Below the pieces are notes generated by a model. The model ran no database searches and was not told where the DNA came from. It saw only the letters and a program-made list of their open reading frames with translations. Shown in pieces: positions 40,980-42,792 of a stretch of DNA of 64,000 nt. The stretch lies in NCBI RefSeq assembly GCF_000026545.1, contig NC_011601.1; one strand, given 5' to 3'. Source of the DNA: Escherichia coli O127:H6 str. E2348/69 (GTDB lineage Bacteria > Pseudomonadota > Gammaproteobacteria > Enterobacterales > Enterobacteriaceae). Position 1 is the stretch's first letter. Every line of letters begins with the position of its first letter. Both the position numbers and the translations under genes were made by a program.

Positions 40980-41376
40980 TAAAGCAGTGCCTTATGTCCG
41001 TAATAACCCGGACAAACTGCATCTGTTTGTGGATAACGGTTCGCTGGTTGCCACGGGGGCCAGCTCCATGTCATGGGAGTACCGCTACACCCTGAACGTG
41101 GTGATTGAGGATTTCAGCGGCGACCAGAATCTGCTGATGGCCCCGGTTTTGCTGTGGCTGCGTGATAACCAGCCCGATGCCATCAATAACCCGGCGTTAC
41201 GGGAAAAGTTATTCACCTTTGAGGTGGATATTTTGCGCAACGATGTCTGTGATATCAGCCTTAACCTGCAACTGACGGAGCGTGTGCTGGTCAGCACTGA
41301 CGGCAGTGTGTCGAGTGTTGAAGCGGTAGCGGAACCTGATGAACCTGAAGAAATGTGGACGGTGAAACGTGGCTGA
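40924..41376 (+). CDS. R: Tail completion protein R
   Basis: ~150 aa, position as P2 R before S. Confidence 0.75.
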   Translation: MRVRSETVNKPQSLRHALNKAVPYVRNNPDKLHLFVDNGSLVATGASSMSWEYRYTLNVVIEDFSGDQNLLMAPVLLWLRDNQPDAINNPALREKLFTFEVDILRNDVCDISLNLQLTERVLVSTDGSVSSVEAVAEPDEPEEMWTVKRG

Positions 41377-41745
41377 ACTGCAGAAGGTGGACGACTGGCT
41401 GAGTGCCTTGCTGGCGAATCTGGAGCCAGCCGCAAGAAGCCGCATGATGCGCCAGCTGGCGCAGGAACTGCGCCGGACACAGCAGCAGAACATCAGGATG
41501 CAACGCAATCCTGATGGCAGCAGCTATGAACCGAGGCGAGTAACAGCACGCAGTAAAAAAGGCCGTATCAAACGGCAGATGTTTACAAAACTTCGCACCA
41601 CAAAATACCTGAAAACTGCCGCCAGCGCCGACTCTGCCAGCGTGCAGTTTGAAGGTAAGGTACAGCGCATTGCCCGTGTTCACCATTACGGCTTGCGTGA
41701 TCGCGTCAGCCGTAAGGGGCCACAGATACGTTATGCTAAACGTAG
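41369..41745 (+). pseudogene. S: Tail completion gene S, 3'-disrupted at the gix-like junction
   Basis: P2 S-like sequence to ...RVSRKGPQIRYAKR, then frame runs antisense through H with no stop until 42157. Confidence 0.6.
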
Positions 41746-41756
41746 GTATGTGAGAA
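41731..41756. repeat. gix/hix-like 26-bp recombination site A
   Basis: TTATGCTAAACGTAGGTATGTGAGAA; half-sites resemble Hin/Gin crossover sites; 11-bp core TAAACGTAGGT shared in inverted orientation with site B; the H ORF stop codon is the last 3 nt. Confidence 0.55.
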
Positions 41757-42792
41757 GACCAGTTACATCCTTTCCACTCAAATTAGTCAGCGTATTGTCC
41801 AGCGGTTGTTTACCTGCCAGTGCATTAAGCATTGTCGTGGCAAAGTTCGGGTCATTCCCCAGCGCCGCCGCCAGTTCGTTCAGTGTATCCAGTGCCGCAG
41901 GTGCAGAACCCACCATTGCCGCAATCGCCGATTTCACAAATGCCGTGGTGGCAATTTGTGTATTGTTGACCGACTGTGCCGCAGTAGGTGCGGTTGGCGT
42001 TCCGGTGAGTGCCGGACTCGACAGCGGCGCTTTCAGTGCCAGCGCATTGTTAATGGTGGTACTGAATTTCGGATCATTGTTAATGGCTGCGGCTATTTCT
42101 TTCAGCGTGTCCAGCGTGGCTGGCGCACCATTAATAAGAGCCGTCAGAGCCGCCTGAACAAACTCGGTGGTCGCAATCTGCGTGGTGTTATTCCCTGCTG
42201 CTGGCGTTGGCGCTTTGGGTGTCCCGGTAAACGTCGGACTTTCTTTGGGTACATACTGTGAATGCGGGTCCGGTGCGGCAAGATGTTTTGCCATCTGATC
42301 ATCCGCGTACACCTTCAGCTCCAGTGCCTTGTCATCCACATACTTGCGGGTTGCTAGCACTACAGCAGGGTCGATTTTCAGGGTGATATTGTCCGTGCTG
42401 CTGGTAATCAGCACCATGCGCACGGTCTGAGTGCGCCCGCTACCTTCAGCCAGTTGCGGCTTATAGCTTTCCGGGCAGTTGCCCACGGCAATCAATGCCC
42501 CGGACTCATCAAACAAGCCCACTTCACGTATCCACCAACCGCCCTCGTTTTCAGGAATCACCTGTTCGGCAATAATCTGACTGCTGTTCTGCGGGTCGAT
42601 ATAGAGCATATTCAGCGCAGCCCGGCGTTTCTCATTTACCAGTGCAGTCTGCTTTGAGTCTGGCGTTGGCAATACTCCGCCGCCATCGCCGACCGCCATA
42701 TGGGTAATTTTTAGCGGCACACCGAGCGCGGCGGCGCTGGCAAGTTTCGCCGCGCCAATATCCGTCAGCAGGGTATAAAATTTTGTGCTCAT
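41731..42792 (-). CDS. H: Tail fiber protein H, N-terminal constant portion only
   Basis: N-terminus matches P2 H by eye (MAVGDGGG, ESYKP.LAEGSGR, NDPNFATTM.NALAGKQP); ends at 353 aa versus ~670 in P2, exactly at site A. Confidence 0.8.
   Translation of the reverse strand: MSTKFYTLLTDIGAAKLASAAALGVPLKITHMAVGDGGGVLPTPDSKQTALVNEKRRAALNMLYIDPQNSSQIIAEQVIPENEGGWWIREVGLFDESGALIAVGNCPESYKPQLAEGSGRTQTVRMVLITSSTDNITLKIDPAVVLATRKYVDDKALELKVYADDQMAKHLAAPDPHSQYVPKESPTFTGTPKAPTPAAGNNTTQIATTEFVQAALTALINGAPATLDTLKEIAAAINNDPKFSTTINNALALKAPLSSPALTGTPTAPTAAQSVNNTQIATTAFVKSAIAAMVGSAPAALDTLNELAAALGNDPNFATTMLNALAGKQPLDNTLTNLSGKDVTGLLTYLRLA

Follow-up and report, generated by a model that had tools for sequence, protein, structure and literature searches.

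Analysis of a 64,000-nt stretch of the chromosome of the enteropathogenic strain Escherichia coli O127:H6 E2348/69 (hereafter the window) revealed that a 262-codon open reading frame, which begins as tail gene S and continues antisense through tail-fiber gene H (41369–42157, plus strand), is very probably the scar of a rearrangement that a P2/186-like prophage, now defective, underwent when a Gin-like invertase acted at a quasi-site within S. The arguments for this assignment are the order and orientation of the surrounding genes relative to an intact prophage, the position of both rearrangement joints within invertase-type crossover sites and the presence of an intact invertase gene next to one of them.

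The prophage spans approximately 20.4–54.1 kb of the window, which is 100% identical to three finished E2348/69 assemblies across 6.4 kb. Upstream of S, the plus strand carries the genes in the order ...O, N, M, L, X, Y, K, lysA, lysB and R, with an intact tail completion gene R (40945–41376, RefSeq annotation) whose 3′ end overlaps the S start and which precedes S as in P2. In phage P2, the genes R, S, V, W, J, I, H, G and FI are co-oriented and only orf30, located in the interval between S and V, is reversed. As the P2 genes from R to FI share one direction, the baseplate and fiber block of the window is upside down: baseplate genes I (42789–43394), J (43387–44295), W (44282–44641) and V (44638–45216) all lie on the minus strand, inverted relative to R/S and to the plus-strand sheath gene FI, which starts at 47280 and is located 3′ of the serine recombinase gene. 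The same inverted block contains orf384 (45299–46453, plus strand), an accessory gene of low GC content that occupies the same position as orf30 in P2 and for which PADLOC gave no match and Pfam only a sub-threshold one.

The intact prophage of NCTC11121 served as reference for the ancestral arrangement. Its genes follow the order R, S (148 aa), orf384 (opposite strand), V, W, J, I, H (500 aa) and tfa, with oppositely oriented tfaE and Hv′, the recombinase gene and FI located 3′ of tfa. BLAST alignment of the window to this locus returned exactly three blocks, of which the first (33140–41747, 97.1% identity) and the third (46498–53539, 99.9% identity) are colinear with NCTC11121, while the second (41738–46509, 99.9% identity) is inverted. 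The inverted 4.77-kb segment lies between two crossover-site cores (41745–46501) and comprises Hc, I, J, W, V, orf384 and the C-terminal part of S. In addition, 1.96 kb of NCTC11121 (7043–9000 of the compared locus) has no counterpart in the window and corresponds to the invertible Hv-tfa/tfaE-Hv′ segment between the ixL and ixR cores of NCTC11121. The event was thus not a simple inversion, as the invertible Hv/tfa segment was also lost.

The left end of the inverted block splits gene S. From its GTG start at 41369, which overlaps the R stop, the reading frame comprises codons 1–126 of gpS (virion morphogenesis/tail completion; 41369–41744) up to the crossover core, a part assigned by its identity to NCTC11121 S and by a match of residues 3–127 to the Pfam family PF05069 (Phage_tail_S, E 9e-35). 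The 148-position profile is matched at positions 2–128 only, and the conserved LLG...L.R C-terminus is absent from the chimera. Compared with NCTC11121 S, 126 residues are 100% identical, 22 are missing and 136 unrelated residues have been gained. The sequence-only reading had described S as a chimera with a nonsense tail, which the alignment bears out, since 126 gpS residues are followed by unrelated antisense-H codons; it had also placed the end of the frame correctly at 42157, while its estimates of about 140 antisense codons and about 25 lost residues are to be corrected to 136 and, by homologue alignment, 22. The missing C-terminus is not lost: the last 22 S codons and the stop are found 4.7 kb away on the minus strand (46501–46431), where they converge on and overlap the 3′ end of orf384 in the same way as in the intact phage. 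Joining 41369–41744 to the reverse complement of 46431–46501 yields a 447-nt open reading frame whose 148-aa product equals NCTC11121 S exactly.

The four intact S homologues that were aligned (NCTC11121, AR_0013, ST95-32 and P2) are 148–150 aa long and read ...RR/RP-LLG... past residue 126, the point after which the chimera diverges. None of them showed similarity to the 136-codon extension, so that the possibility, raised along with the original observation, of an extended C-terminus shared by intact S proteins did not hold. The predicted chimeric product is therefore classed as a truncated pseudogene product and not as an intact member of the Phage_tail_S family.

The opposite strand of the same joint carries the end of gene H. 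H (42792–41731, minus strand; Pfam PF12571; CAS08377.1/WP_000104819.1) consists of Hc only and encodes 353 aa, which are identical to the 500-aa H of NCTC11121 up to residue 350 with one substitution at residue 181, followed by RLA and a stop. As had been noted before, the TAA stop of H (complement of 41731–41733) coincides with the outermost three bases of the 26-bp site at the left joint. This TAA, which had been likened to the TAA at the end of Mu-type gix sites, was contributed by codons of S (cgT TAt) within the half-site that came from S, so that it falls in the H frame by accident and is no design feature. Some crossover sites of this invertase family do start with TTAT (Table 3 of PMC4134206). 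The predicted truncated H lacks the distal receptor-binding part, and the fiber chaperone genes are gone. The exact truncated H product was found on 18 contigs in all. Separately, two contigs that seemed to place H beside icd were judged to be chimeric, with a 16-bp palindrome joining them to a locus 400 kb away, and an H homology that seemed to run past the site in ST95-32-type genomes turned out to be merely crossover-site similarity.

Both joints lie within sites of the type recognized by Gin, Cin, Pin and Hin, for which we used the pattern of two imperfectly symmetric 12-bp half-sites around a 2-bp core, TTnnnnnAAACC-nn-GGTTTnnnnnAA, which agrees with the Sandmeier consensus as given in PMC4134206 (Table 3). 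Site L (41731–41756, core 41743–41744) is a 26-bp hybrid of TTATGCTAAACG from S, the core TA and GGTATGTGAGAA, the Hc half of the natural ixL; site R (46490–46515) is a 26-bp hybrid of TTCCAAGTAACC from S (reverse strand), the core TA and CGTTTATGAAAA, the invertase-proximal half of ixR. Each matches the consensus at 12 of 14 specified positions, a score reached or exceeded by only four 26-mers in the entire 64-kb window. A generic repeat search around the locus missed both sites, because too few bases are common to the two, and a consensus scan found them. The parental sites can be read from NCTC11121 in phage orientation: ixL at the Hc/Hv boundary is TTCTCACATACC TT GGTTTGGGAGAA, ixR beside the invertase is TTCTCCCAAACC AA CGTTTATGAAAA, and the quasi-site within S is TTATGCTAAACG TA GGTTACTTGGAA.

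Base-by-base alignment placed the left joint within 4 nt, with identity to S through 41747 and to Hc from 41744; at the right joint, identity to the S(C)/orf384 side extends through 46509 and identity to the invertase-proximal part of ixR begins at 46503. The crossover intervals 41744–41747 and 46503–46509 both overlap the 2-bp cores, as expected for strand exchange at the central dinucleotide, and the earlier proposal that the 26-bp site marks the recombination joint was thereby confirmed. The left joint pairs one half of the S quasi-site with the natural site at the Hc end, and the right joint pairs the other half with the natural site adjoining the invertase. That both breakpoints fall on the centers of invertase-type sites is far beyond chance. 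The cores differ between the partners, TA in the S quasi-site versus TT/AA in ixL and ixR, and both joints carry the S-type T (TA). With regard to the half-sites, S(N) resembles natural halves at up to 9 of 12 positions and S(C) at up to 7 of 12, compared with 8–10 of 12 among natural halves. At the equivalent position of S, the quasi-site scores 12/14 in NCTC11121 and E2348/69, but only 7, 6 and 4 of 14 in AR_0013, ST95-32 and P2, respectively. Among the S alleles compared, the look-alike is limited to the one linked to orf384, and its absence from the other three indicates that it is fortuitous and not an evolved site.

An intact gene for a serine DNA invertase of the Gin/Cin/Pin type (188 aa; 46571–47137, plus strand; Pfam Resolvase and HTH_7) starts 55 bp from site R. 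Its product aligns along its full length with Gin of Mu (structures 3uj3 and 4m6f, E 1e-93) and has the same accession (WP_000905023.1) in E2348/69 and in the intact NCTC11121 prophage. Din-family invertases use a Fis-bound enhancer in cis, which in most cases lies within the invertase gene, towards its 5′ end. As the gene is 99.9% identical to its NCTC11121 counterpart, any recombinational enhancer within it is presumably retained in E2348/69. As at least three further invertase systems are active in E2348/69 (PMC4272514), the event is not assignable to one particular invertase.

Based on these findings, we propose the following course of events. The ancestral prophage would have had the NCTC11121 order R – S – orf384 (opposite strand) – V W J I – Hc – [ixL] – Hv tfa/tfa′ Hv′ – [ixR] – invertase – FI. 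A serine invertase of the Gin type, encoded by the prophage itself or elsewhere in the genome, would have acted on the look-alike in S together with a natural tail-fiber crossover site, cutting the central dinucleotides and swapping half-sites between a TA core and a TT/AA core. In a first event, recombination of the S site with ixL (or ixR) would have inverted the block from S(C) to Hc and left a heteroduplex with one mismatched core base per joint; segregation or repair may then have given one daughter duplex with TA at both joints, matching the cores observed. In a second event, the 1.96-kb Hv/tfa segment would have been deleted by recombination of the TA-core hybrid site with the remaining natural site, which, TA being symmetric, requires only one mismatched base, whereas direct deletion between ixL and ixR would mismatch both core bases. 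As a consequence, S is split after codon 126 and reads on accidentally through 136 stop-free antisense H codons, H ends at the TAA supplied by the S half-site, and the phage has lost the receptor-binding tip of its fiber together with the chaperones.

Off-target recombination of the Gin type is the economical explanation for this arrangement, because the breakpoints lie at the centers of genuine or look-alike sites and the partners have no other homology. Two points of general knowledge weigh against it: core mismatches strongly depress recombination in vitro, and invertases of this family disfavor deletion. A search of 5,426 complete E. coli genomes revealed no intermediate S(N)-Hv′ or S(C)-Hv junction, so that both the two-step path and the sequence of the steps are inferred from the end product. 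The only match in the junction search, an Hc-invertase junction in EC16, lacks the core and was ruled out as a precursor.

Among the same 5,426 genomes, both junctions of the rearranged block occurred only in the three E2348/69 assemblies, and they were also present on contigs from five independent read sets. This distribution bears on whether the 4.77-kb block is a new switch that still reverses, such that S would alternate between the intact 148-aa form and the 262-aa chimera while the baseplate operon reorients. Several features speak for such a switch: sites L and R are inverted, have an identical symmetric TA core and contain one natural half-site each, and with matched cores and a natural half apiece they should recombine more readily than the original quasi-site. 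Given inverted sites, matched cores and an intact Gin-like invertase, reversal is chemically plausible; it would restore S exactly, and other prophage segments of E2348/69 do invert at measurable rates (PMC4272514). However, only one orientation was found in the three finished genomes and in the contigs of the five read sets, although assemblies show the majority state only, and the H predicted for the flipped state (352 aa) is not on record. Moreover, a genome-wide paired-end screen of E2348/69 detected only three invertible loci, none of them here (Table S1 of PMC4272514); these map to 1.89, 2.75 and 2.98 Mb and measure 1.6–2.0 kb each, and the authors put the sensitivity at approximately 1:100. 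The absence of the quasi-site from other S alleles also argues against a selected design. We therefore consider continued flipping unlikely, albeit worth bearing in mind, as a block that is still reversible would be a live example of a new phase-variable module born from a quasi-site accident.

A genuine coding function of the 262-aa frame, either as a functional S variant or as an antisense-overlapping gene, appears very improbable. The S start is retained and overlaps the R stop, so that the frame would be translated upon expression of the late O operon, and 262 codons are free of internal stops. To judge the latter point, the 141 underlying H codons were permuted in 20,000 trials, and the same antisense register was stop-free in 16% of them. 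A stop in this register requires an H codon for Tyr, or for His or Gln, after particular third bases, and the Ala/Thr/Gly-rich Hc repeats contain few Tyr or suitably placed His/Gln codons. Stop-free antisense runs of 100–250 codons also occur in most genes of the prophage. The long open frame is thus ordinary on both counts and was dismissed as a meaningful signal; its length carries no evidential weight. Further points against a real gene are the confinement of the junction to E2348/69 among the 5,426 genomes and the absence of the exact 262-aa sequence from approximately 15 billion predicted proteins. No Pfam match was obtained for the antisense tail, which on direct reading is hydrophobic and rich in Ala, Ser and Val, as expected from the antisense of Ala/Thr-rich H repeats, and PGAP/RefSeq likewise calls the E2348/69 S gene a pseudogene with "missing C-terminus". 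Searches for regulatory signals gave 6 promoter-like sites versus 7.2 expected in shuffled sequence and 12 terminator-like sites versus 7.0 expected (about 2 sd above shuffled), none of which was informative for the chimeric frame. Still less probable are an error of assembly and a homologous or illegitimate exchange in which the invertase had no part. Mis-assembly is frequent in invertible regions and some metagenome contigs with this fragment are clearly chimeric, but three independently finished genomes and several short-read assemblies have identical junctions, the homology of the partners is limited to a few bases around the core, and both breakpoints coincide with the centers of the natural ixL and ixR of the intact relative.

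The preferred reading, a scar of off-target invertase activity, is paralleled by two further, independent accidents in the same prophage family. In AR_0013, recombination of ixL with a weak quasi-site in the sheath gene FI inverted the segment that extends from Hv into the N-terminal part of FI and produced two pseudogenes. In EC16, Hc is joined straight to the invertase-proximal half-site and the 2-bp core is missing (TTCTCACATACC|CGTTTATGAAAA), the result expected if two unpairable overhangs had been trimmed. Like E2348/69, both cases involve natural sites, have their breakpoints at site centers and produced pseudogenes; they differ in partner sites and outcomes, as the AR_0013 quasi-site has the natural AA core and EC16 has lost its core. 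Taken together, the three cases suggest that tail-fiber invertases recurrently cause decay of P2-like prophages.

Overall, the feature is a pseudogene that very probably arose from an invertase accident and represents a natural example of a known mechanism, not a new gene. It explains at base-pair resolution why the P2-like prophage of the reference EPEC strain, with its split S and without fiber tip and fiber chaperones, is defective. For annotation purposes, the 262-aa frame should remain a pseudogene, to which the S remnant of about 72 nt at 46431–46501 also belongs.

The closest known counterpart is the Cin invertase of phage P1, which is reported by Iida and Hiestand-Nauer in 1986 (Cell) and 1987 (Mol Gen Genet) to recombine at quasi-sites (cixQ) with localized conversion of the core; both papers appear as refs 50–51 in PMC4134206. 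As in P1, a Din-family invertase would have joined a genuine 26-bp site to a fortuitous look-alike, with joints at the central dinucleotide. P1 products of unequal cores can carry a converted core, and the TA at both E2348/69 joints may be of the same kind. In contrast to the P1 events, which were selected on laboratory plasmids, the E2348/69 event became fixed in a natural chromosome, interrupts a tail gene that is essential and went along with the disappearance of the normal invertible segment; in addition, its TA versus TT/AA cores imply a one-base mismatch in either orientation. It thus provides a clean natural case of off-target recombination by a tail-fiber invertase, a process known mainly from plasmid experiments. 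The same enzyme family and 26-bp sites underlie the G segment of Mu (Gin), the C segment of P1 (Cin), the P segment of e14 (Pin) and the switches of P2-like prophages such as EC958 Phi2 (PMC4134206). Tail-fiber switches and E2348/69 also share the placement of one site at the junction of the constant and variable parts of the fiber and of the other beside the invertase gene. However, while a normal switch swaps fiber C-termini and leaves all genes intact, in E2348/69 the variable cassettes are gone, the constant part is inverted together with the baseplate operon, and S is disrupted.

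A P2-like prophage related to that of the window, in E. coli AR_0013 (locus L003, NZ_CP032204.1), has undergone a separate, independent aberrant inversion. The crossover sites lie at 3130-3155 and 6723-6748 of this locus, and the partners were the natural site at the end of the constant part of the tail-fibre gene (Hc) and a weak look-alike within the sheath gene FI, GCGACATTATCG AA GGTATCCGCGCC, whose AA core is identical to that of the natural Hc site. The stretch turned round comprises Hv-tfa-invertase-FI(N), leaving both FI and H as pseudogenes. In the prophage of E. coli EC16 (L006, NZ_CP189734.1), the invertible Hv/tfa segment has been deleted entire, and Hc abuts the invertase-proximal half-site without the 2-bp core at a 24-bp joint, TTCTCACATACC|CGTTTATGAAAA (7139-7162), which looks like the outcome of mismatched overhangs that failed to ligate and were then trimmed.

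Two metagenome-assembled contigs, L008 and L013 (from ENA ERZ761545 / ERZ761551), join the icd flank of E2348/69 (100% identical), located about 400 kb from the window locus in that genome, to window position 43073 downward. The joint (5639-5654 in L008) is a perfect 16-bp palindrome, GAGTAGAATTCTACTC, adjoining a CCCGGG site, and is probably a chimera or ligation artefact, not a true rearrangement. An exact 19-bp direct repeat, TTTTCAGGGTGATATTGTC (antisense strand as written), with one copy within H and one within V (window 42375-42393 and 44808-44826), may be a chance occurrence.

Block alignment with the intact relative in E. coli NCTC11121 gave only 97.1% identity for the head, lysis and R-S(N) block (window 33140-41747; S(N), the first 126 codons of S), whereas the tail blocks (41738-53539) reached 99.9%. 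This shift in identity at S indicates that the E2348/69 and NCTC11121 prophages are both mosaics, with histories that differ on the two sides of S.

In the prophage of the window, between S and V, the position of orf30 in P2, lies the low-GC (about 40%) gene orf384 (45299-46453, + strand), whose 3' end convergently overlaps the S stop. A PADLOC search of orf384 returned no match and a Pfam search a sub-threshold match only. The 90% cluster to which it belongs counts 278 members, from E. coli and Klebsiella. The gene is a candidate for an accessory or defence role. Two adjoining low-GC genes (31510-33049, + strand) match the Shosta defence system (ShosT, E 4e-14; ShosA, E 3e-70, DprA-like, PF02481) and occupy the P2 tin/old accessory position immediately ahead of the portal gene. 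Adjoining the integrase, a very low-GC (32-40%) stretch (21588-24677, - strand) encodes a KAP-family P-loop NTPase matching the PADLOC candidate PDC-S20 (E 5e-78), followed by two homologues of the 186-type CI repressor (307 and 191 aa), the longer of which contains two CI HTH domains. Downstream of the replication gene, a DinI-like protein is encoded (30148-30453, + strand; PF06183, E 1e-22), and this region recalls the Tum antirepressor region of 186.
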